DNA of 64,000 nucleotides. It comes from Chitinophagales bacterium (GTDB lineage: Bacteria; Bacteroidota; Bacteroidia; Chitinophagales; JADIYW01). Positions 3,420 to 61,359 of the stretch are shown here, one piece after another. The DNA is taken from positions 18,888-82,887 of the forward strand of contig JAXLTY010000003.1 of the NCBI GenBank assembly GCA_046329815.1. The letters run 5' to 3'. How positions within the stretch are numbered: the first letter of the stretch is position 1; every line of letters begins with the position of its first letter. The notes under the pieces are model-generated. The model was given only the letters and a program-made list of their open reading frames with translations, had not been told where the DNA came from and ran no database searches. The translations under genes and the position numbers were made by a program.

Positions 3420-3473
3420 TTTAATAGTATTTAGTATTAAGTTGTAAGTATGCAGTATTTATTATGCACTTTA

Positions 3474-5441: not shown

Positions 5442-6044
5442 TTAATCATTCTTTATTTCCATTAATTTCAATGTCAGCATTTCCAATAGTTCTGGTTTTT
5501 CACAGTTATTTTCAACAGGATATTGAAAAGTGAATCTATATTTCTCCAGGTTTTTTAAAATGACCGTTGCTTCATAATTGTAAATCGCGATCTTTACATT
5601 TACGGTTCCGCTGTAGCTGGTTCTTTTGTAATCTTTTATTTGCACCAACTTGACATCTAAAATATTATGTAGTCCGATGTCAAACTGTTTATTTTTATCT
5701 TTAAAAAGCATCTGAATACTTTCTCCTAAAAAAGGAATAAATGAAAGCACCTGGTATTTATATGGAAAAATCACCAGCCTGTTGTTAGTAAGATATAATA
5801 CACTTCTGATCGCGATGGTTTTGTCTTTCGCAGCATAGTAAACCACATCGCTTGCCAGATTTACTTCGTCCTGCTGCATATCAAAAGTGAATTTCTTTTC
5901 CAGTTTTCCAACAAAGACCAATACGATGATCGTAATCAGCGGCAAGCCGAAAAGAAAGAGCAACACCGGCCAGGCATCTTCTATGATGTTCTCCATACTT
6001 TGCCATACCGAGCGTAATAAAACAAAAGCAAGTTCCATGTACAT
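5442..6044 (-). CDS. Membrane protein with PH/GRAM-like domain
   Basis: 200 aa. An N-terminal TM segment (WPVLLFLFGLPLITIIVLVFV) is followed by 'IRSVLYLTNNRLVIFPYKY', which is typical of bacterial PH/GRAM folds. It is in an operon-like arrangement with its neighbours. Confidence 0.5.
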   Translation of the reverse strand: MYMELAFVLLRSVWQSMENIIEDAWPVLLFLFGLPLITIIVLVFVGKLEKKFTFDMQQDEVNLASDVVYYAAKDKTIAIRSVLYLTNNRLVIFPYKYQVLSFIPFLGESIQMLFKDKNKQFDIGLHNILDVKLVQIKDYKRTSYSGTVNVKIAIYNYEATVILKNLEKYRFTFQYPVENNCEKPELLEMLTLKLMEIKND

Positions 6045-13689: not shown

Positions 13690-13813
13690 AATGCAAAAAT
13701 ACGATTTACGATGTACGATGTACAATGTATGATTAAAAAGAAATTAACGATGTACAATGAACAATTAACAATAGACAACGGACCATTAACTTTTCACTTT
13801 ATTTCTTACAAAT

Positions 13814-16132: not shown

Positions 16133-16395
16133 GAATTAAAATTAACGCTCTAAAACAATTTAAAACGTTAACAATTCTTAAAGAGTTGATATATAGTGAA
16201 AATACGCAAGTGAATTTTGAATGTTGAATTATGAATTATACTACATCGTGCATACAAACCTATTTTTAAAACTATATTATTTAACACTCATAAGATAAAA
16301 TATAAAAAAAACTAGAAAAAGATTTGCTTTTTCAAACCAATAATATTATATTCACATCAGTTAAATATTTAACAAACCATTAAAACTATTAAATT

Positions 16396-16950
16396 ATGTC
16401 TCAATTACCTTTAGAACTACCCGTATTTACGGACGATGAAATGGCTACTTTCCGCACAGCCATCGCCACAGCCAAAGCCATTATTGCTTCCAAATTCGTG
16501 AACCTCGAACCGAAAGACCGCACGAAGTATGGCTCCATCAGCGAGCAGAACAAACTTATTATTAACAAAGTCTGGGATTACCACGTCAATATGCCGCACC
16601 TTTCTAACACGGATATTGACTGGGATGAATATAAAGCGCAAAACAATACACGTACTAATTTTACGAATGTGATCGCCCTGCTTGGAGAGATCAAAGAACT
16701 TTGCAACGATCCGCGCATATTGGTCGATTATTCATTGTTCGGGCTGGCGCGCCAGGATTACAAATGGACGAAGTACAAAGCCGAAGACGATGGCGGCAGC
16801 GGCAGTGGTTATGAAGAAAAATATAACGACCTGAAACAGTTTTTTGAACACGATAGTGCTGAGCCGCCTTATGTAGTAGTGGATGATGATGAGGATGAAG
16901 AAGAAGATGATGATAACGATAACGGCTCGGATGACACACCAAATCCTTGA
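16396..16950 (+). CDS. Uncharacterised conserved protein with poly-acidic C-terminal tail (paralog A of 46722..47210)
   Basis: 184 aa. Clear by-eye homology to the protein at 46722..47210: NLxxx(D/E)RxK(Y/F)GS, NKL(I/F)(I/V)NK, PHL(S/A)xxD(I/V)DWxE(Y/F), LKQFF. The tail is DDDEDEEEDDDNDNGSDD. Confidence 0.75.
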   Translation: MSQLPLELPVFTDDEMATFRTAIATAKAIIASKFVNLEPKDRTKYGSISEQNKLIINKVWDYHVNMPHLSNTDIDWDEYKAQNNTRTNFTNVIALLGEIKELCNDPRILVDYSLFGLARQDYKWTKYKAEDDGGSGSGYEEKYNDLKQFFEHDSAEPPYVVVDDDEDEEEDDDNDNGSDDTPNP

Positions 16951-17078: not shown

Positions 17079-17267
17079 AAACGGGTGTTTACCCGTTGTT
17101 AGACGGGTAAAATGGGGTCTTTGACGGGTAAATTGGCGTCCCGAACGGGTAAATACCCGTCCACATACGGGTAAAATGGCGTCCAAGACGGGTATTTAGG
17201 CGTCTGAGACGGGTAAATCGGCGTCCGAGACGGGTAAATACCCGTTCAGCAACGGGGTTTTACCCGT
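17079..17267. repeat. Tandem array 1: 9 copies of a 21-22 bp unit, core ACGGGTAAA(nn)GGCGTC / palindrome ACGGGTAAATACCCGT
   Basis: 'acggg' starts at 17081, 17103, 17124, 17145, 17167, 17188, 17209, 17230 and 17252, giving spacings of 22,21,21,22,21,21,21,22. Units 1, 4, 8 and 9 are palindromic (…acccgt). The rest carry ggcgtc in the right half. Confidence 0.9.
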
Positions 17268-17387
17268 ATGTACAGTTTTTCTGGTGAACACATTGTTAAT
17301 TTAACAATGTGAAGTGTTTACAACATATGAGGATGAATTGTAGGGATTTTTGATTGATAAAAAGTATATTTGAAAGAAAAGCATACC

Positions 17388-18029
17388 ATGCAAGGAATTT
17401 ATCACACATATAAAAGCGATTATCCAAATCAAGTTCATCAATTAAATTATTCAATTTCTCAAAATTATCATCTCTTAAAAAATGGAGAGATTAAATATCA
17501 AGCAAAAAAATTTGACATTAATTTAAGTAATTATACAAAAACAGGAAAAAGGCATTTATATAGTTTCTTAATTAGAGATCATTTTAGTAATTGTTTTTAT
17601 GCAGAATTACACCCAATAGATGAAGCACATAATATAAAGGATTTTTTGTTTAATGCTTGGAAACATAAGAAAGATTTTGAATTTAGAGGAATTCCTAGAA
17701 GTTTAATTATTGGCAGACATGTGGCAGAGAAATTTCCATTTATAAATAACTTAGAAAAAAACATTGGATTAAACATTGAACTTGCAAAAAATGGTTTTGC
17801 AACTGGAATTAGGTCTTTGAGAGATTGGGAAAACAATATTAAATTTTATATTTCTTTTGAAGACTGTAAAACGATTACAGAGTTTCAAAATCATAACGAA
17901 TTAATTTGTAGAAATATAAATTGTAGAGAAAGCGGAAAAACAGAACAGAATTTATTAAAATGGGCAAATAATAAACCATCTGGTAAGGTAATAAATGATA
18001 GAATTGAATTTGAAAGATTTTTTGAATAA
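17388..18029 (+). CDS. Hypothetical protein with degenerate integrase/RNase-H-like (rve-type) core
   Basis: The track ORF is 17370..18029 (TTG). The first ATG is at 17388. By-eye match to the rve core layout: 'KKFDINLSNY…GKRHLYSFLIRDHFSNCFYAEL…NIKDFLFNAW…GIPRSLIIGRH…GIRSLRDWENNIK'. The second catalytic Asp position appears to be replaced (IIGRH). The gene is AT-rich. Confidence 0.5.
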   Translation: MQGIYHTYKSDYPNQVHQLNYSISQNYHLLKNGEIKYQAKKFDINLSNYTKTGKRHLYSFLIRDHFSNCFYAELHPIDEAHNIKDFLFNAWKHKKDFEFRGIPRSLIIGRHVAEKFPFINNLEKNIGLNIELAKNGFATGIRSLRDWENNIKFYISFEDCKTITEFQNHNELICRNINCRESGKTEQNLLKWANNKPSGKVINDRIEFERFFE

Positions 18030-23585: not shown

Positions 23586-24920
23586 TTAAATTACAAGAGC
23601 CGCCTCCACGTTTCCGGCTTCATCGAAATCGTTCAGAGCAACAGCAACGATGTTGTTTACTTTTTCCGCGTTGTACGGAACAGCCACTTTGATATAGTTA
23701 TCTGTAAAGCCGTGCATGATATCACCTTTTTGTTCTTCTTCCAGTAATACGCTGCGCGTTTGTCCGATAAATTGTTCGTAGAAATTTCTTCGTTTCTTTT
23801 CACTTAATGTACGCAGCATCGCATTGCGTTCATTGCGCACGATCATCGGCACCGGATTTTCGATCTCAACCGCTTTCGTGTTTTGTCTTTCTGAATAGGT
23901 GAATACATGCAGGTAAGAAACATCCAACGCATGAATAAAATTATAGGTATCTAAAAAATCATCATCGCTTTCCGACGGAAAGCCAACGATCACATCTACA
24001 CCAATGCAGGCATGCGGCATTACTGCTTTAATTTTTTCTACTCTTGATTTGTATAAATCGCTTTTGTAGCGGCGCTGCATCAGCTTCAGCATCTTGTCGC
24101 TGCCACTTTGCAACGGAATATGAAAGTGCGGCATGAAGCGTTTGCTTTTCGCTACAAACTCAATGATCTCATCGGTCAGTAAATTCGGTTCGATAGACGA
24201 AATACGGAAACGTTCGATGCCTTCTACTTCGTCGAGCATTTTCACCATATCAAAGAAATTATAATCACCATCGATACCTTTACCATAATCGCCGGTATTG
24301 ACGCCTGTCAGCACAATCTCTTTTACACCTTTTGCCGCGAGATTCTTTGCATTTTTCAATACATTTTCCGGTGTGTCGCTACGGCTTTTTCCGCGCGCCA
24401 ATGGAATGGTACAAAATGAACATTTGTAATCGCAGCCGTCCTGTATTTTTAGGAAAGAACGCGTGCGGTCGCCGACAGAATACGCATCGACAAAGAAATT
24501 CGCGTTGGAAATTTCAGACGCTAATACTTGTCCGCAAGGATTTTTGGTAAGGTCGGTAATAATTTCCGGTAGTCGGAATTTTTCAGCAGCGCCTAATACC
24601 AAATCGACACCTTTGATAGACGCGATTTCTTTCGGTTTCAACTGCGCATAGCAGCCAACTACTACTACATAAGCATCCGGATTTTGCTTCATGGCTTTGC
24701 GCACCATGTTACGGCATTTGGTATCTGCCTGTTCGGTTACGGAACACGTATTAATGACATACACATCCGATGGTTCATCAAACTCAACGGTCGTGAAGCC
24801 ACGCTCCTGCATTTTGCGCGCGATGGCAGACGTCTCCGAGAAGTTGAGCTTGCAACCTAAAGTATGAAAGGCGATTTTTTTGTCGATAACCACAGCGCAA
24901 AAATACGGATTCTCTGCCAA
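23586..24920 (-). CDS. mtaB: tRNA t6A37 methylthiotransferase MtaB (radical SAM MTTase)
   Basis: 'IAFHTLGCKLNFSE' (UPF0004 domain), 'GCDYKCSFCTIP' (radical SAM CxxxCxxC) and a TRAM-like C-terminus. The exact start is uncertain. Confidence 0.85.
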   Translation of the reverse strand: MAENPYFCAVVIDKKIAFHTLGCKLNFSETSAIARKMQERGFTTVEFDEPSDVYVINTCSVTEQADTKCRNMVRKAMKQNPDAYVVVVGCYAQLKPKEIASIKGVDLVLGAAEKFRLPEIITDLTKNPCGQVLASEISNANFFVDAYSVGDRTRSFLKIQDGCDYKCSFCTIPLARGKSRSDTPENVLKNAKNLAAKGVKEIVLTGVNTGDYGKGIDGDYNFFDMVKMLDEVEGIERFRISSIEPNLLTDEIIEFVAKSKRFMPHFHIPLQSGSDKMLKLMQRRYKSDLYKSRVEKIKAVMPHACIGVDVIVGFPSESDDDFLDTYNFIHALDVSYLHVFTYSERQNTKAVEIENPVPMIVRNERNAMLRTLSEKKRRNFYEQFIGQTRSVLLEEEQKGDIMHGFTDNYIKVAVPYNAEKVNNIVAVALNDFDEAGNVEAALVI

Positions 24921-25010
24921 TTTACTTTGCTCAGCGAGTCAACTTTATGTAAAGATGCCGCGTATAATCTGAATCTGGATTTACTGGATTCGTGGATTAT
25001 TAGATTAAGT

Positions 25011-25304
25011 CCGGATGATGTTCGCGCAAATTATGATGGCGTCCGCGCAAATGATGATGGTTTCCGCGCAAATGACGATGGTCTTCGCACAAATTATGAT
25101 GGTGTCCGCGCAAATGATGATGGCGTCCGCGCGAATGATGATGGCTTCCGCTCAAATGAAGATGGTGTCCGCGCAAATGATGATGGCTTCCGCTCAAATG
25201 ATGATGGTGTCCGCGCAAATGATGATGGTCTTCGCGCAATTGATGACGGCGTCCGCTCAAATGATGATGGCTTCCGCTCAAATGATGATGGCTTCCGCGC
25301 GAAT
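25011..25304. repeat. Tandem array 2: 14 exact-length 21-bp units, consensus GATGATGGCGTCCGCGCAAAT
   Basis: Units run head-to-tail from 25011 with no length variation (25011-25031, 25032-25052, … 25284-25304). Variants are GG(C/T)(G/T/C)T(C/T)CGC. The array lies in the divergent intergenic region between mtaB and 25443..25793. Confidence 0.92.
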
Positions 25305-25442
25305 GAATTTATTCAATATTCTGTGCCAAAATAAAAATTAACATACCTTTTTATGGAATTTGGACAATTCATGTATCTATATATCGAAACATGTTTTACG
25401 TCATGGCATATTAAGCATTCTTAAACTATTTAAAGTAACAAA

Positions 25443-25793
25443 ATGATACCAGTTACCAATACCATCAAGAAATATGCTGAACATCTTGTGGCAGTACAGT
25501 TTATGGACGCCGGAATAAAGGTTTTTCAAAATATCAGCGCCTATAATGATACGTTTGATCTTATTATTAAATCAAAAACCGGCAATTATTATGATATTTT
25601 AGTAGAAGTAATCGATCACAAATTCCGTAGTGAACTCCATATTTATAAACGAAAGTATAATTTTGAGCTAAAAGACAATTATTATATAGCATTGGCAGTT
25701 TTTGATCAAGGCAAGCACGATTTTTACTTAATTCCTTTCAATGTATTTAAGAAGTCCAGCCGCACATTTACAAACATTGAATATAATCCATAG
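25443..25793 (+). CDS. Hypothetical protein (116 aa; possibly 147 aa if the in-frame TAG is bypassed)
   Basis: ORF MIPVTNTIKKYAEHLVAVQF… The frame stays open for 30 more codons after the TAG at 25791-25793 (LNHLSSWEIAARDKEAFERFAFKDIAPQLK*), up to 25886. Confidence 0.5.
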   Translation: MIPVTNTIKKYAEHLVAVQFMDAGIKVFQNISAYNDTFDLIIKSKTGNYYDILVEVIDHKFRSELHIYKRKYNFELKDNYYIALAVFDQGKHDFYLIPFNVFKKSSRTFTNIEYNP

Positions 25794-25918
25794 CTTAATC
25801 ATCTTTCCAGTTGGGAAATTGCTGCGAGAGACAAAGAAGCATTTGAGAGATTTGCTTTTAAAGATATTGCTCCACAATTAAAATAATAACAAGCCACAAA
25901 CTTGCTTCATTTATTGCA

Positions 25919-27664: not shown

Positions 27665-28642
27665 TTATCCTAACACCGCCTCTTTATTATATTTTCCTTT
27701 ATATTCTATCGGTGACATGCCAGTAATCTTGCGGAAGACTTCACGGAAGGCCTTGATGTCGGAATAGCCAACATCGTACATGACTTCGTTGATGGTCTTG
27801 CGCGTGTTCTCCAGTGTTTTCTTCGCTGATTCGATCTTTACACGCTGTGCATATTCCAACGGTGTGTTGCCGGTGGCTTTGACGAATCGCCTGTCGAAGT
27901 TTCTTCTGCCCACTGCAAACTTAGACGATAAATGTTCTACCGATATTTTTTCGTGCAGGTTCTTTTCTATGTATGCCTGCGCTTTTACCACCATTTCATC
28001 ACCGTGCTGTTTTTGTCCGGTGAAAATCGCAAAGGTGGACTGGCTGTTGCGGTCCACTTCTATCTGGAAAACCTTCGTGCAAAAGATGGCGGTTTCGCGA
28101 TTGAAGTATTTCTCTACCAGATAAATCATCAGGTTTAAAAAAGAAAACGCGCCGCCGTTAGTGTAGATGCCGTTCTCATCCGTGATGAGCTTATCCGGCT
28201 GCAGGTCAACATCCGGAAATAACTGCCTGAAATGATTAGCGAGATTCCAGTGCGTAGAACAACTCTTACCATCGATCAAACCTGTGGAAGCCAATAAGAA
28301 TGCGCCGGAACAGATACTCGCAATTTCAGCACCTGCATGATATTGCTTGGTCACCCAGTGGATGAGCAGCTTGTTATCACCAATAAAGTTTTCATCGTAC
28401 GCGCAGGAAGGAATGATGATAAGGTCGGCTTTTTTTATTTCTTTGATGTTTATTGGATGAATGGAAAAATAACCGGCATCGAGTTTCAGCTCACTCATAA
28501 AACCTGCAATGCGCACTTCCATTTTTGACTTGTTCCCTATTCGCTGCCAGTAAGCATTGGCGCTGTTCAATACCTGGAACGCACCGGTAACACTGCTCAG
28601 CGTTACTTTTCCTTTCGGAATCACTATTACAACCTGCTTCAT
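27665..28642 (-). CDS. GlxA-family transcriptional regulator (DJ-1/PfpI domain + AraC-type HTH)
   Basis: 325 aa. The N-terminal half has 'IASICSGAFLLASTGLIDGK' (DJ-1 nucleophile elbow). The C-terminus has 'GNTPLEYAQRVKIESAKKTLE…YDVGYSDIKAFREVFRKITGMSPIEY' (AraC HTH). Confidence 0.88.
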   Translation of the reverse strand: MKQVVIVIPKGKVTLSSVTGAFQVLNSANAYWQRIGNKSKMEVRIAGFMSELKLDAGYFSIHPINIKEIKKADLIIIPSCAYDENFIGDNKLLIHWVTKQYHAGAEIASICSGAFLLASTGLIDGKSCSTHWNLANHFRQLFPDVDLQPDKLITDENGIYTNGGAFSFLNLMIYLVEKYFNRETAIFCTKVFQIEVDRNSQSTFAIFTGQKQHGDEMVVKAQAYIEKNLHEKISVEHLSSKFAVGRRNFDRRFVKATGNTPLEYAQRVKIESAKKTLENTRKTINEVMYDVGYSDIKAFREVFRKITGMSPIEYKGKYNKEAVLG

Positions 28643-36653: not shown

Positions 36654-36761
36654 AGCGATGCTAAAAGTACGGCTGATTTTTATTTCTATACCTTGTTAAC
36701 AACCAACAGATGTTGATAGTGATGTGCGATTTACGATGTACGATGTACAATTTAGAACGAT

Positions 36762-41801: not shown

Positions 41802-43630
41802 CTAATCTAAACTGAGTTCAAACTTCTTTATTAATTCCAACACCGCAGGATTGTTGTCAATCATTTCTTTCAACCGGTCTTTCGGTGTTTTATAATTTTT
41901 GACCGCTTCTTCTTTTCTATCCAACACAAACTTCAGATGTACGGTTGACGATGTTGTTTTTTTGATAAAATAAGAAACGATGTCTATTTTATGCAGTTGT
42001 AACAATTCCAGTGAGATATTGTTTGTTTCGATGAAAGTGATTTCATCGTTTAATAATTTTGGCGTTTGTCTTTCCGCAACGCTTAAGAAAGCATTCTGCA
42101 ACTTGCTGCTATTTTCCGTTAAAAAGTCTTTCCACAACACCAATAAAGAATCTTCATTCAGTTCTACTTTCTTTTCTTTGTTTTCGATAACAACATCCTG
42201 ATGAATATCTTTCAGCATGTTGCCCATCGAAGACGATTTTGGCAACTCGCGTTTAGGTTTTGGAGTCGTAAGTGGTGAGTCGTGAGTCGTAAGTGATTTA
42301 TCTACAGAAACGATTTCCTGTTTATCTTCTTTTTTAGTTTCTTCAATGGAAACTGTAGTGTTTACAGCTACCTTGGACTCGGTTATTTCTTTCTCTGTTT
42401 TTAATTCAGAGAAAAATAAATCTTCGTCCGCCAGTTGAATGCCATATTTCTGCCGGTTTCTTTTCTCTTTATAAAATTCAAGAAGTGCTTTTAGTTTTTT
42501 TTTTCACCGAGCAAAATAGAAAGCGTGTTTTCTATCTGTGTGTTTAAGAAGCATATTTTAAGCAACGCCAATTCCACCAATAAACGTTTGTTTTTGGCTG
42601 TCTTGTAATCGATGTCGCATTTGTTTACCGTAGTCAGTGCATTCAGTAAAAAAGTATCGTTTACTAAAGATGATTGCTGATGATATTTATCTTTTATATC
42701 GTCGGCAGCTTCAAGTAAATGCACTGTTTTTTCTTCTTTGCAAATCAATAAGTTTCTGAAATGCTCTGCCATTCCTACCAAAAACATTTCGCCATCAAAA
42801 CCATTGTTTACGATCTCGTTGTATGCATTCAAGACAGCCGCAGCATCTTCCGTCATAAAATATTCCGTGATCTTAAAATAATAATCGTGATCTAAAATAT
42901 TCAAATTCGAAATCACATCCTGATACGATACTTTTTTGCCTGCGTAACTTACAATTTTATCAAACAACGACAACGCATCGCGCAAACCACCATCGGCTTT
43001 TTGTGCAATGACATGCAGCGCAGACGGCTCGGCTGTAACACCTTCGCTGTCGCAAATTTTTTGTAATTGTTTTACAATGTCTTTATCGGAAATGCGTTTG
43101 AAATCGAAGATCTGGCAACGCGACAAAATGGTTGGAATAATTTTGTGTTTTTCTGTAGTCGCTAAAATGAAAATCGCGTAGCTTGGCGGCTCTTCCAGTG
43201 TTTTCAGGAATGCATTGAATGCACCGCTTGACAACATATGCACCTCATCAATAATATAGACTTTGTATTTTCCGGATTGCGGCGCAAAACGCACCTGATC
43301 GACCAACTGACGAATATCATCGACACTGTTGTTGGATGCAGCATCTAATTCAAAAATATTGAACGACGCGTTTTGCGAGAACGACACGCAGGAATTACAT
43401 TCGTTGCACGGCTCGAAATCGGTTCCGGGATTTTCGCAGTTGATGGCTTTCGCCAAAATACGCGCGCAGGTGGTTTTACCAACGCCACGCGGTCCGCAAA
43501 ACAGGAAAGACTGCGCCAGCTTGCCAGTGGACAGCGCTTTTTTCAGCGTATCAGACACTTGTTCCTGACCGACCACATCCAAGAATTTGGCCGGACGGTA
43601 TTTACGCGCCGAAACGATGAAATTTTCCAT
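41802..43630 (-). CDS. dnaX: DNA polymerase III subunit tau, full length only if a -1 shift (or one extra A) occurs in the A10 run at 42495-42504
   Basis: The N-terminal 0-frame ORF (42491..43630) carries the clamp-loader AAA+ motifs (GPRGVGKTT, DEVHML, SRC). The -1 frame is open with no stop from the A-run through 42246-42494 into track ORF 41802..42245. Own translation: …KKKLKALLEFYKEKRNRQKYGIQLADEDLFFSELKTEKE…PKPKRELPKSSSMGNMLKD…. Confidence 0.75.
42491..43630 (-). CDS. dnaX: DnaX 0-frame product (gamma-like, domains I-III, 379 aa)
   Basis: The ORF ends …LGEKKN* (GGT GAA AAA AAA AAC TAA), directly after the homopolymer. Confidence 0.85.
   Translation of the reverse strand: MENFIVSARKYRPAKFLDVVGQEQVSDTLKKALSTGKLAQSFLFCGPRGVGKTTCARILAKAINCENPGTDFEPCNECNSCVSFSQNASFNIFELDAASNNSVDDIRQLVDQVRFAPQSGKYKVYIIDEVHMLSSGAFNAFLKTLEEPPSYAIFILATTEKHKIIPTILSRCQIFDFKRISDKDIVKQLQKICDSEGVTAEPSALHVIAQKADGGLRDALSLFDKIVSYAGKKVSYQDVISNLNILDHDYYFKITEYFMTEDAAAVLNAYNEIVNNGFDGEMFLVGMAEHFRNLLICKEEKTVHLLEAADDIKDKYHQQSSLVNDTFLLNALTTVNKCDIDYKTAKNKRLLVELALLKICFLNTQIENTLSILLGEKKN
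42495..42504 (-). other. A10 homopolymer: candidate recoding (ribosomal -1 frameshift or transcriptional slippage) site, or a homopolymer length error
   Basis: Ten consecutive T on the plus strand (A10 in the mRNA sense), with the 0-frame stop 1 codon downstream. Confidence 0.6.
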
Positions 43631-44274: not shown

Positions 44275-45328
44275 GCTTACACAACATTTGACAATTTTCG
44301 GCTGTCGTTTTTCCGCCTTCGTGCCAAGGTGTGATGTGATCGGCTTCCATTTCGTTAAGTTCAAAAGTAACTCCACATTTTACACAAACACCTTTTTGTC
44401 TTTCATATGCTTCTCGTTTTTGTTTGTCGGTAAAAGCTCTGATACTTAAATATTTTTCATTGCGTGTCAATACATATTCATAAATACCAGACTTTTTAGT
44501 TACGTCTTCGTCTTGCATTAAATGTGTTATTTCTTCTTCTAATTTTTTTGCATCAAAATTTTGGTCTTTGTAATTGTTGTAAAGAAAACCATAATTTATG
44601 CCTTTCATTTCTTTACGATATTTTGGAAAAACTACTTTTATCCAATTCATCAAACTTGTAAAGTATAACCACAATTCACTTGCATTTGGCTTGTGTTGGT
44701 TTTCAGCCATATATTGCTCAATGTTGTCTTTGCTTATCCAACTAATTACAGTTTCTAAATAATCTTGTCGAATAGGCGAACCTGTCATATAATCGTTTCC
44801 AATGTTGTAAGCTGGACAACCTGTTTTACTGAAATACTTTTTAGCTTCTGTTAGCCAAGTGCCTGTGTAAATAGCATTTCTAAGTTCTTGATTAGTGAGT
44901 TTTTCGCCTGCAATATTTATGGTTTTAAACCAATCTAGCTTTTCTTTATCATTTCCTTCGCAGAAATAAACCATGAGTTTATAATCTAATATTTGCTCTT
45001 GTTCTACATCTGTAAGATTATGGAAATACATCGCATTTAAAGAAAATGTTCCTGTTGCATATTCGCAAATACTAATGGTTCTTTGTTGTCCATCTAAAAC
45101 CTCGTAAGTATCATCTTCATTTTTTACCCAATACATTACATTTAAAGGGAAATTCTTTTGCACGGTTTCAATTACCGAATCGCGTTGTTTATCTTTGTAA
45201 ACAAATTCGCGTTGATATTTTGGACGAATATTTAGTTTACCACTATAACCAACCACACCTTCTTCGTTGTTGTTAATATAACCATTTACAACTTCACTAA
45301 TTTTTATTTCTTTAAGTTCTATTTTCAT
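44246..45328 (-). CDS. DUF262 (ParB-like/GmrSD N-terminal type) domain protein fused to a C-terminal HNH endonuclease motif
   Basis: 360 aa with 'RPKYQREFVY…VLDGQQRTISI' (DUF262 DGQQR signature). The C-terminus 'CVKCG…EADHITPWHEGGKTTAENCQMLCKHDN' is an HNH motif with zinc-ribbon cysteines. Confidence 0.85.
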   Translation of the reverse strand: MKIELKEIKISEVVNGYINNNEEGVVGYSGKLNIRPKYQREFVYKDKQRDSVIETVQKNFPLNVMYWVKNEDDTYEVLDGQQRTISICEYATGTFSLNAMYFHNLTDVEQEQILDYKLMVYFCEGNDKEKLDWFKTINIAGEKLTNQELRNAIYTGTWLTEAKKYFSKTGCPAYNIGNDYMTGSPIRQDYLETVISWISKDNIEQYMAENQHKPNASELWLYFTSLMNWIKVVFPKYRKEMKGINYGFLYNNYKDQNFDAKKLEEEITHLMQDEDVTKKSGIYEYVLTRNEKYLSIRAFTDKQKREAYERQKGVCVKCGVTFELNEMEADHITPWHEGGKTTAENCQMLCKHDNRIKSGK

Positions 45329-46323
45329 ATTCGCTTGTTCTTTATAAAAATTCTTTTATAAACTCGTTTTTGATTTACCATAGCTTGGGCAACTTTACTT
45401 TCTTCATTCCATAGACCATTTGAAAAACCTTTACCTTCACTTTCTGTTGCACCTATTATTTCAAATTGTTCAGGATTATATTTATCCATGAAAGTTATTG
45501 GAACGCCCATTATTCCTTTATAATCTAATGGAATATCTTTTGTTTTTGAAACTTCAATAGCACTATAATTGTCGTAAGTTGGATATTCAATTTCATTATA
45601 AGTCTTATATAAAATTAAATCTTCGTGTCTTTTCCTTGAATCTAAATTGGTAAACCAATGAACACCCGAAACTCTAATTTTGCCTTCTTTGTGGTTTCCT
45701 GCGGTCGCATAATCTTCATACTGTGTATTAATGAAATGAGCTGCGCCACCATTAAAACCATATCCTAACCATAATTTGTTTTCCTTAATTAATGGAAATA
45801 TTTCTTTGTATGTTAAAGCGTTTTGATGACCAACAATAAGAAACTTTTTGTCGTATTCTATCAATTGAGCCACATATTCTCTAAATAACGAAAAAGGCGG
45901 ATTAGTTACAACTATATCTGCTTGTTTCAACAATTCAATACTTTCTGAACTTCTAAAATCACCGTCGCCTTCTAAGTAATGTATTCCTATTTCTTCTGCA
46001 TTGGGAATTTTGTCTCCATTTTTGTCGCCGTTATATTCTAAATAAATAGCTTTCTCAGATTGATGTTTGCTAAATAAATCTCTTTCTTGGTTCTTGTAAC
46101 AAGTTGTAATTAAGCGTTTCAGTCCTAAATTTTCAAAATTATAAGAAAAATAATGAAAGAAATTACTCACTCTTGGGTCATCACAATTGCAAAAAACGGT
46201 CTTGCCTTTAAAATGGTCTTTGTAGTGTCTTAATTCTTTTTCAATGTCGGTCAGCTCGGTATAAAACTCATCATTTTTACCTGCTTTCGCGTTGTTAAGA
46301 TTTTTATTTAAAGATTTCGCCAT
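45325..46323 (-). CDS. N6-adenine DNA methyltransferase, EcoRI-methylase-like family
   Basis: 332 aa with 'KNDEFYTELTDIEKELRHYKDHFKGKTVFCNCDDP' and the catalytic 'IVVTNPPFSLFREY' (NPPF). Its stop overlaps the DUF262 start (ATGA, 45325-45328). Confidence 0.85.
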   Translation of the reverse strand: MAKSLNKNLNNAKAGKNDEFYTELTDIEKELRHYKDHFKGKTVFCNCDDPRVSNFFHYFSYNFENLGLKRLITTCYKNQERDLFSKHQSEKAIYLEYNGDKNGDKIPNAEEIGIHYLEGDGDFRSSESIELLKQADIVVTNPPFSLFREYVAQLIEYDKKFLIVGHQNALTYKEIFPLIKENKLWLGYGFNGGAAHFINTQYEDYATAGNHKEGKIRVSGVHWFTNLDSRKRHEDLILYKTYNEIEYPTYDNYSAIEVSKTKDIPLDYKGIMGVPITFMDKYNPEQFEIIGATESEGKGFSNGLWNEESKVAQAMVNQKRVYKRIFIKNKRI

Positions 46324-46612: not shown

Positions 46613-46721
46613 ATATGATATTTTTAAATAATTAACATTTATTTAGAAAAAATATAGCATAAAATTGCTTTTCTATCCGTTAATTTGTTTCATATTCATT
46701 AATCAATCAAATAAATACGAT

Positions 46722-47210
46722 ATGCCCGTTACAAATTTAGGAAGACTGCACCTTACAGCAACACAAAAAACAGCCATCGATACTGCATTAACAACTATTG
46801 AAACACAGCTTTTGACGGTAACCATGAACCTGAACGCTGAAGAACGCAAGAAGTTTGGTAGTGTAAAAGAATACAATAAGTTATTTGTAAACAAAGACCG
46901 TGATTACTATTTAACACAGCCACATTTGGCAAGCCCTGATGTAGATTGGGTAGAGTTTGAAGCAGATTTTCAGGATAGAGTATTTGCAGATACTCGTTTA
47001 GATAGGATTGCTACCATAACACGTATGTTGAGCGATTTTAAAATTGTACACGATTATGATAATTATCAGGATGGATTAACAGATTATGATTATAGCCAAT
47101 ACAAAGCTAATACAAAAGCACCTGGCTTTACAGAAAAAGTAGAAGAACTAAAACAGTTTTTTCCGAATACAAACGGCGGCGGCAGCGGCGATGGCACTTC
47201 TGCTGAATAA
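46722..47210 (+). CDS. Uncharacterised conserved protein (paralog B of 16396..16950)
   Basis: The start at MPVTNLGRLHL is preferred (the track starts at 46665). It shares the NLxxxERKKFGS, NKLFVNK, PHLASPDVDWVEF and LKQFF blocks with paralog A. The tail is Gly/Ser-rich instead of acidic. Confidence 0.75.
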   Translation: MPVTNLGRLHLTATQKTAIDTALTTIETQLLTVTMNLNAEERKKFGSVKEYNKLFVNKDRDYYLTQPHLASPDVDWVEFEADFQDRVFADTRLDRIATITRMLSDFKIVHDYDNYQDGLTDYDYSQYKANTKAPGFTEKVEELKQFFPNTNGGGSGDGTSAE

Positions 47211-55166: not shown

Positions 55167-55273
55167 AAGATATAAGTTAAACGTTATTCGTTATACAACT
55201 CTTAAATAACAATAATCACTAACTTACAACCAATAACCTATAACTAATAACGTATAACCAATAACTCATATCT

Positions 55274-60704: not shown

Positions 60705-60785
60705 CTCTATTTAGAACTACATCAAAAACGTTTTTACAGGAAAATACAAATAAAATTCGCCGTAAAACCATTTTTATAGTTTTTT

Positions 60786-61003
60786 CCTCGTATGGGTAGC
60801 AATACCCACGCCATAAAAACCTGTACCCATGCCGTGGGTACGAAAATCCACGCCATGTGTATCGATTTTCCTTGTACAGGTATCAATACCCACGCCATAA
60901 AAACCTGTACCCACGTCATGGGTACGAAAATCCACGTCATGGGTATCGATTTTCCCGGTATAGGTAAAGGTACCCACGGAAAAGGTAACAGCACCCACGA
61001 CAT
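60786..61003. repeat. Tandem array 4: about 2.6 copies of an 84-bp unit built from 21-bp-phased sub-repeats carrying (T/G)ACCCA(C/T)G / its complement
   Basis: The 84-bp period is shown by 'caatacccacgccataaaaacctgtaccca' at 60800 and 60884. The acccac/acccat/atccac motifs at 60804, 60825, 60846 and 60888 are spaced 21, 21 and 42. Confidence 0.85.
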
Positions 61004-61359
61004 CAATAATGCGACCTATGAATAAAAAAATGGCAATAATTACAATATCAAACCAGTTGTGCGGTTTGATTTTTGATTTTAACCACATAGCTCCGAACTT
61101 TAGGAGCATCGTTTTTTAAGATTAGCAATGCGTGCGATACAAAATATTACGTTAAAATAGAAAAATATAGGAATCGCCAAAAGCGATTCTATATGTGTTG
61201 CTATGGCTATCAGACAGATTTGCACCAAACAACAATGTATAGTTATAAATCCTATACTTCTATGTGGTTTAAACCGCACAATGGTTATATCAATAATTTA
61301 TGCAACGGCTATATCCTTAAATCCATTCTTATTCACTTTTAAACCGTAATTTATATAAT

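Follow-up and report, generated by a model that had tools for sequence, protein, structure and literature searches.

A 21-bp tandem array between mtaB and an orphan gene of a Chitinophagales bacterium behaves like bacterial variable-number tandem repeat loci

Here we describe an array of 21-bp tandem units in a stretch of 64,000 nucleotides from a Chitinophagales bacterium (GenBank assembly GCA_046329815.1, contig JAXLTY010000003.1; from here: the window). The array is located in the divergent intergenic region between mtaB, encoding a tRNA methylthiotransferase, and an orphan open reading frame (ORF), orf116. It behaves like the variable-number tandem repeat (VNTR) loci of bacteria. With a probability of roughly 0.5, we read it as an ordinary, lineage-restricted non-coding minisatellite (VNTR) within the upstream region shared by mtaB and orf116, the latter being 147 codons long in a second strain (L066). 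The locus has the following features, with coordinates referring to the window.

23586..24893, minus strand: mtaB, tRNA t6A37 methylthiotransferase (TIGR01579, 449 bits at a cutoff of 357)
24898..24905, minus strand: TATTTTTG, candidate −7 promoter box, 4 nt before the GTG of mtaB, conserved in the relative L031
25011..25304, no strand: tandem array of 14 units of 21 bp, consensus GATGATGGCGTCCGCGCAAAT, 51% GC
25011..25031: degenerate boundary unit of the array, CCGGATGATGTTCGCGCAAAT, matching the consensus at 15/21 positions in register
25174..25207: longest exact internal repeat of the array, left copy, 34 bp, CAAATGATGATGGCTTCCGCTCAAATGATGATGG
25258..25291: the same repeat, right copy, 34 bp, positioned downstream of the left one by 84 bp (4 units)
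25305..25442, no strand: AT-rich spacer from the array to orf116, with 2/138 differences to L066
25443..25793, plus strand: orf116, orphan ORF (NCBI MFN8284636.1, locus tag U0U67_15545)

Structure and composition of the array

Tandem Repeats Finder (TRF) called the array at 25023-25306 (period 21, 13.5 copies, 84% matches, 0% indels, score 372), and by this score it is the strongest by far within the window. In the register used by the preliminary description of this DNA, 13 units match the consensus at 16-20 of the 21 positions. TRF and consensus matching agree on what that description had reported, a head-to-tail array of 21-bp units without indels over 294 bp. Its count of 14 copies stands for the 13 good units, whereas the first unit is degenerate and is better read as an 18-bp copy that is 3 bp short or shifted. 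With up to three mismatches allowed, the consensus 21-mer has 11 matches in the window, all of them within the array, at an expectation of 0. As in VNTR loci, units in the range of 10-100 bp follow each other head-to-tail far above chance.

The 12 variant types of the unit, occurring in 28 instances, fall mostly on positions 9, 10 and 16, which bears out the clustering of substitutions at 3-4 positions described before; position 12 and, as further sites, 1, 3, 6, 18 and 20 are minor variable positions. By direction, six variant types are GC-to-AT and three AT-to-GC. The unit had also been described as richer in GC than its surroundings, and this holds for the window (36% GC) as well as for the immediate flanks (27-39%). 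The longest exact repeat within the array, the 34-bp sequence listed above, is common to units 9 and 13. On the mtaB side the array starts 91 bp from TTG 24920 and 118 bp from GTG 24893, and at its other end 138 bp separate it from ATG 25443 of orf116, in agreement with a divergent intergenic site at about 90 and 140 bp from the two genes if the former is measured from the TTG.

Assembly support and occurrence elsewhere

Short-read Logan contigs from four runs (SRR26348417, SRR26348419, SRR26348420 and SRR26348423) reproduce both flanks of the array in the window at 100% identity. They stop inside the array, the left side reaching 25127 and the right side starting at 25262, and are identical to the window throughout. 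The array is real and not an assembly artefact. The Logan k-mer size is 31, and we infer that breaks of such short-k-mer contigs inside the array are to be expected from its 34-bp exact internal repeats. The count of 14 copies is credible for the same reason, since 34 bp is the longest internal repeat and an assembler with k >34 resolves all units.

For a comparison with relatives, mtaB was inspected at 58 genome loci in metagenome-assembled genomes of the Chitinophagales, Saprospirales and Sphingobacteriales, with MtaB identities of up to 94%. The array was found upstream of mtaB in 0/58 of these relatives, and none of them shares any neighbouring gene. Because it is absent in all 58, the array is not a conserved part of the mtaB promoter and not tied to mtaB. 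In L031 (MtaB identity 94%), the region upstream of mtaB holds a divergent ORF that looks oxidoreductase-like by eye. A two-unit degenerate pattern of the array had no match in JGI metagenome contigs or IMG/VR contigs, and the right junction had none in the JGI contigs.

Copy number in a second strain

Within the 90% cluster to which orf116 belongs is a protein of 147 aa, encoded on the ENA contig k141_749494 of ERZ27248705 (L066). This contig begins inside the array; from a partial unit 3 to unit 9, and then at unit 14, it carries the units of the window without any difference. MAFFT placed L066 without an internal gap; an explicit gap scan then favoured a single gap of 84 bp, with 294/296 identities compared to 274/296 without a gap and 280 at best for gaps of 21, 42, 63, 105 or 126 bp. 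There are 35 equivalent start positions for the gap, from 25174 to 25208, coinciding with the pair of 34-bp repeats at 25174 and 25258. The two sequences differ at 26/351 positions in orf116, with 4 differences in its first 158 bp and 22 in the last 193 bp. Just past the stop of the 147-aa ORF, homology to the window ends and the two downstream contexts differ. By alignment, L066 is a distinct but related strain.

As aligned, the array copy number differs between the two strains by whole units, exactly four (84 bp). Comparison of copy number across strains had been proposed as a check, and on this short-read contig it varies by whole units, with L066 having four fewer. A gap inside identical units is, at the sequence level, the signature of slippage or unequal recombination, and a whole-unit difference between strains together with an indel breakpoint within identical repeat copies is what a VNTR is expected to display.

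The strict 21-bp length had been taken to suggest a constraint on helical phase. A clean 84-bp indel between 34-bp repeats suffices instead, as in-register slippage or recombination by whole units keeps the unit length at 21 bp and selection on phase is not needed. The lack of small indels is unsurprising because there are only about 12 substitution types. The helical-phase idea is compatible with the data, yet these hold no evidence of selection.

Reading frames through the array

Three long ORFs run through the array, named here after the peptides of their heptads. They are expected, because the unit is stop-free in most frames, and all three are essentially bounded by the array.

24864..25334, plus strand: DDGVRAN-frame ORF, 156 aa if started at ATG 24864 and 135 aa if started at TTG 24927
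25015..25341, plus strand: ORF in the MMASAQM (Met-rich) frame, 108 aa, consisting of the array plus 12 codons, with a TAA immediately upstream
25000..25281, minus strand: ORF in the HHHLRG (His-rich) frame, 93 aa, with a TTG start only, within the array

In a codon-usage log-odds test, windows of real genes scored 0.345 ± 0.117 bits per codon and wrong frames −0.75 ± 0.28. The DDGVRAN frame reached +0.56 bits per codon, the Met frame 0.00 and the His frame −0.16, with an effective sample of 7 codons for the DDGVRAN test. The score of the Met frame is below the 5th percentile of genes, and the third-position GC content of its consensus is 86% compared to 36% GC in the genome. The His frame has no ATG and a TAA directly upstream, and 12/12 variant types are non-synonymous in it. 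Coding-type codon usage combined with a coding-type substitution pattern was found in the DDGVRAN frame only. All three ORFs had been called artefactual in the preliminary description. For the Met-rich and His-rich ORFs the codon scores and variants support this, and they are most likely by-products of a stop-free unit; for the DDGVRAN frame the verdict is slightly too strong in view of its coding-like statistics.

Neither the DDGVRAN product (at E ≤ 0.01) nor the Met-frame product has a homologue among 5.8 billion clusters. Against 1.84 billion representatives, the His-frame product gave 62 matches, all of them to unrelated heptad-repeat ORFs. A protein collection that holds the NCBI proteins of both neighbouring genes lacks all 13 candidate products of array ORFs, including those of 156 and 135 aa.

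The DDGVRAN ORF has two canonical starts only: ATG 24864 falls within mtaB by 30 nt, and TTG 24927 is separated from the GTG of mtaB by 33 nt. The conserved candidate −7 box of mtaB falls inside the ORF, which continues for 10 codons past the array. A gene for a repeat protein would be expected to have a plausible start that leaves space for a promoter, and ends outside the repeats; neither was found for this ORF, nor were a signal peptide or a recognisable domain. From the single sequence, AlphaFold2 predicted one long helix, with a pLDDT above 90 in 2/5 models. Perfect repeats often give a single long helix in AlphaFold2, and we judge this prediction uninformative.

Motifs, RNA structure and DNA shape

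No Rfam family was found above threshold in the array, the C/D-box matches reaching 16-17 bits at gathering scores of 38-45. Compared with shuffled sequences, RNA from the plus strand folds into much less structure (z = +4.9) and that from the minus strand is unremarkable (z = +1.3). There is no terminator-like or antiterminator site at the array. The array has no dyad symmetry, no terminal inverted repeats and no inverted repeat that would pair its left with its right flank; a transposable element of the miniature inverted-repeat type (MITE) was ruled out for lack of flanking inverted repeats. The nearest DnaA boxes (TTWTNCACA) are at 5496 and 30143, hence not near the array, and its neighbours are mtaB and an orphan ORF and not a rep gene. 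A replication origin or iteron array was ruled out on these two grounds.

Beyond the array, the 64 kb show no enrichment of the conserved core CAAATGATGATGG, with 4 matches at two mismatches compared to 3.2 expected. The motif ATGGCGTCC had been said to occur in several units of another array of the window (array 1, see below). It was found there once exactly (17176) and once with one mismatch (17133). Coincidence had been considered for this overlap, and it is no more than coincidence-level, GGYGTCC not being enriched in the window outside array 1 and the array studied here (array 2).

In a wedge model with the parameters of Bolshoy and Trifonov, whose values are indicative only, each unit spans 2.006 helical turns, and the end-to-end ratio of the array is 0.37, a value within the lowest 0.4% for segments of the window. 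In this model no place in the window is more curved than its three 21-bp arrays. Arrays of shuffled units are about as curved, which makes the curvature generic to the 21-bp period and not a property of the unit sequence.

Other tandem arrays in the window and in relatives

Further 21-bp arrays are present in the window and in L013 and L031, its two closest relatives by mtaB. None was found in about 550 kb from more distant relatives.

17103-17239: array 1, about 6.5 units of 21 bp, GACGGGTAAAATGGCGTCCAA
46470-46607: array 3, about 6 units of 21 bp containing AAAATTTT (A4T4)
L013, 10457-10539: intergenic 21-bp array, CATCTCGGTGTCTCCCGAAAG x4, GC-rich, about 100 bp upstream of a 505-aa ORF
L031, 1182-1282 within the region 1104-1282: intergenic 21-bp array, TTGCACCGAATAATACATTAC x4.8

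Array 1 lies between ORF 16396..16950, whose stop precedes it by about 150 bp, and ORF 17370..18029, which follows it by about 130 bp; both ORFs lack a Pfam match. It is flanked by palindromes at 17080-17098 and 17251-17268, and some of its units are perfect palindromes themselves (ACGGGTAAATACCCGT). From its sequence, array 1 looks like a candidate operator array. Array 3, the most curved place of the window in the wedge model, is located between the divergent minus-strand gene 45325..46323, which has an N6-adenine-methyltransferase-like NPPF motif, and 46665..47210. The ORFs 16396..16950 and 46665..47210, both on the plus strand, are paralogues without Pfam matches (36% identity, E = 2e-25); the former is just upstream of array 1 and the latter just downstream of array 3.

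The window also contains heptanucleotide arrays of 4-9 copies at 55205-55265, 42263-42294, 36721-36748, 16211-16239, 13700-13733 and 3425-3465, built from the units AATAACC, GAGTCGT, GATGTAC, TGAATTA, TACGATG and TAGTATT. All but the one at 3425-3465 were checked against the ORFs; they lie in short intergenic gaps, and for several of them the next start codon is only 9-18 bp away. Similar intergenic heptamers, with the unit TAACTGA, have been described in Beggiatoaceae, cyanobacteria and a few Bacteroidetes (PMC4679880). A repeat of 84 bp (also of 42 bp) at 60782-61003 lies inside ORF 60774..61109 on the minus strand; the N-terminus of this ORF is hydrophobic and its repeats are 28 residues long, so that it may encode a genuine small repeat protein.

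Neighbouring genes

The MtaB protein (NCBI MFN8284634.1, starting at GTG 24893) contains the UPF0004 and Radical_SAM domains. In Bacteroidota, the −7 promoter consensus is TAnnTTTG. The mtaB promoter is likely located in the approximately 100 bp between mtaB and the array, because the candidate box TATTTTTG is found there and is kept in L031. With this predicted box only 4 nt from the GTG, the sequence suggests that the mtaB mRNA is leaderless or nearly so. A scan for sigma-70 promoters is uninformative for a Bacteroidota genome.

In the window, orf116 is cut by a TAG at 25791. L066 has AAG at this position and 31 further codons, giving 147 aa and a frame extending to about 25885, so the orf116 of the window is, by this comparison (window 25791-25885 with 297-740 of L066), a truncated allele. 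Neither version has a significant Pfam, NCBIfam, PADLOC or PDB match; the only family match is a marginal one to phrog_5018 (E = 0.0012), to which no function is assigned there. Among the 5.8 billion clusters, homologues of orf116 are confined to its own cluster, and the AlphaFold2 model of the protein (pLDDT 49.7) is unusable. The divergence between the two strains rises from about 2% to about 11% near 25660, which, as far as sequence goes, suggests a recombination mosaic.

Between the NCBI accessions of MtaB (MFN8284634) and orf116 (MFN8284636) exactly one number is free. Given this spare number, the public annotation may carry a coding sequence across the array (window 24894-25442).

Interpretation

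In the mechanism that we favour, units would be added and removed by slipped-strand mispairing as the DNA replicates, or by unequal recombination among identical copies. Both processes would act in register, so that every unit would stay 21 bp long without selection, while the GC-rich unit would decay under AT-biased mutation. As 21 bp equal two helical turns, a gain or loss of units would alter the spacing of the two promoter regions from each other and keep their rotational setting, and the array is predicted to form an in-phase bent segment. Its effect on the expression of mtaB or orf116 is probably modest or absent.

Several observations weigh against an ordinary non-coding minisatellite. 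The variation in copy number comes from one short-read contig (MEGAHIT k141). The 156 bp of array that L066 has in common with the window contain 0 substitutions, compared to about 2% in the adjacent DNA (P about 0.04-0.1). The array is far richer in GC than the intergenic DNA of the genome, and this would not be the case for a neutral element of long standing. A period of 21 is common to all sizeable non-coding arrays of the window, L013 and L031, and this recurrence hints at a common cause beyond neutral slippage. The cause could be a common binding protein with a two-turn footprint or, equally, a lineage-specific slippage bias, which is conceivable because 7-bp arrays abound in this genome too (compare PMC4679880). 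Finally, the codon score of the DDGVRAN frame exceeds the mean of real genes and is matched, in the best frame, by 3.3% of shuffled units. In this frame the variant types are split 5, 1 and 6 over first, second and third codon positions (p = 0.054 for a given codon-position class holding no more than one), and the amino-acid changes are conservative, with V replaced by F or L, A by S or T and D by E.

In line with these codon and substitution statistics, an alternative is that the array makes up most of a real gene that is specific to the lineage and runs in the DDGVRAN frame from 24864 or 24927 to 25334. Its product would be an orphan protein with the heptad repeat D-D-G-[VFL]-R-[AST]-N, varying in length by gain and loss of units, and could be a young translated repeat protein born from a minisatellite. 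Prodigal calls the frame in three independent assemblies, the Logan and ENA contigs among them. Moreover, the period is divisible by 3, the boundary unit is off by 3 bp, and the GC content of the array is nearer to coding DNA than to the intergenic flanks; the predicted helix adds weak evidence. Opposed to this are the lack of homologues, the absence of the products from the protein collection and the few codons entering the codon test. The ORF starts in or against mtaB with the −7 box inside it, leaving no space for two divergent promoters, and it ends shortly after the array. A heptad with glycine, two aspartates and asparagine is also a poor former of helices and coiled coils. On balance we regard such a gene as possible but unlikely.

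Slightly more doubtful is an arrangement in which the array would be a phased platform of 13-14 candidate direct-repeat sites for a DNA-binding protein, one per two helical turns, and/or an intrinsically curved upstream element, controlling the divergent promoters of mtaB and orf116; the remaining 21-bp arrays of the lineage would be elements of the same kind. In each unit a 17-bp block CGCnCAAATGATGATGG (positions 13-21 plus 1-8) is largely conserved, with position 16 often variable and 1, 3, 6, 18 and 20 occasionally so, and the 4-bp segment at positions 9-12 holds the two most variable positions. Direct repeats at AraC/XylS-type sites are likewise arranged as 17 + 4 bp. By analogy, this geometry and a DJ-1/AraC regulator gene (27665..28642) 2.4 kb from the array may be taken as a lead. 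The modelled two turns per unit and curvature of the three arrays, the occurrence of 21-bp arrays in L013 and L031 but not in distant relatives, and the retention of array and spacer with orf147 in L066 despite a differing downstream context would fit as well. On the other side, there is neither dyad symmetry nor enrichment of the core motif or of GGYGTCC outside the arrays named above, the curvature is shared by shuffled units, and, with four units lost in L066, the number of copies is under no tight constraint. The genes adjacent to the array offer no candidate binder, as orf116/147 lacks a recognisable domain, and the DJ-1/AraC gene is not among them; for a platform acting as an origin, DnaA boxes and a rep gene are missing.

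An extension of this idea, that arrays 1, 2 and 3 and those of L013 and L031 form a lineage-wide class of phased two-turn direct-repeat platforms upstream of genes in these Chitinophagales/Saprospirales, appears improbable to us. In such a class, a DNA-binding or nucleoid protein could polymerise along the repeats, with copy number tuning occupancy.

Translation of the Met-rich or His-rich frame as a metal-binding or amino-acid-sensing leader peptide, or a role of the array as structured or sponge RNA, is very improbable: both frames are open across the array, the His frame facing mtaB and the Met frame orf116, but their codon scores, starts and variants and the RNA results given above speak against it. 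An attenuator or leader peptide in these frames was ruled out, there being no terminator, no structure and the wrong substitution pattern.

Significance

If the array is only a VNTR, as we favour, its practical value is limited. It is a strain marker for an uncultured freshwater or sludge lineage of the Chitinophagales. It is a known cause of contig breaks, all four Logan runs breaking inside it, and a likely source of spurious 'hypothetical protein' calls, since Prodigal calls the DDGVRAN frame in each assembly. Should the recurrence of period 21 reflect a shared DNA-binding mechanism, the arrays would represent a type of regulatory or architectural element new to the Bacteroidota, in which, to our knowledge, promoter-proximal control is poorly understood. 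Should the DDGVRAN frame be translated, it would provide a clean case of a coding sequence arising from a minisatellite and varying in length with it.

Comparison with known systems

Operators of the AraC/XylS type consist of 17-bp direct-repeat half-sites that are 4 bp apart, with two half-sites or a few. The array is similar in its direct repeats at 21 bp from centre to centre and in the succession of a largely conserved 17-bp and a variable 4-bp block. It differs in having 13-14 repeats and no adjacent AraC-family gene.

Iterons and centromere-like arrays of plasmids and phages are direct repeats of about 20 bp, spaced at one or two helical turns and located beside a promoter. Direct repeats of about 20 bp at helical spacing next to a promoter are likewise a trait of the array. 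In contrast to iterons, it has no rep or par gene, AT-rich unwinding region or DnaA boxes, its neighbours are chromosomal housekeeping genes, and its units are strictly contiguous.

Within the Bacteroidota, BrickBuilt is a 23-nt minisatellite inside a MITE that is present in 19 copies per genome of Porphyromonas gingivalis; it has leader and tail subunits with inverted-repeat ends and shows bidirectional promoter activity (PMC4596501). Both BrickBuilt and the array consist of spacer-less tandem units of about 21-23 nt in intergenic positions, tens to hundreds of bp from the flanking genes, and bidirectional promoter activity as in BrickBuilt would suit a divergent intergenic site like that of the array. 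The array differs from BrickBuilt in showing a single copy within the 64-kb window, in lacking flanking inverted repeats and in its dissimilar unit sequence.

As the bacterial VNTR for comparison we chose the mycobacterial interspersed repetitive unit (MIRU)-VNTR loci of Mycobacterium tuberculosis (PMC12817950; reviewed in PMC3899988). The array differs from these in that it is a single locus of an uncultured Chitinophagales lineage with one strain comparison, in that its unit is unusually GC-rich for the genome, and in that one of its frames is coding-like. In both, units of tens of bp follow each other head-to-tail and the copies have diverged slightly, and strains differ by whole units where repeats are identical; such loci also often lie between genes and often break short-read assemblies (compare PMC6868369).

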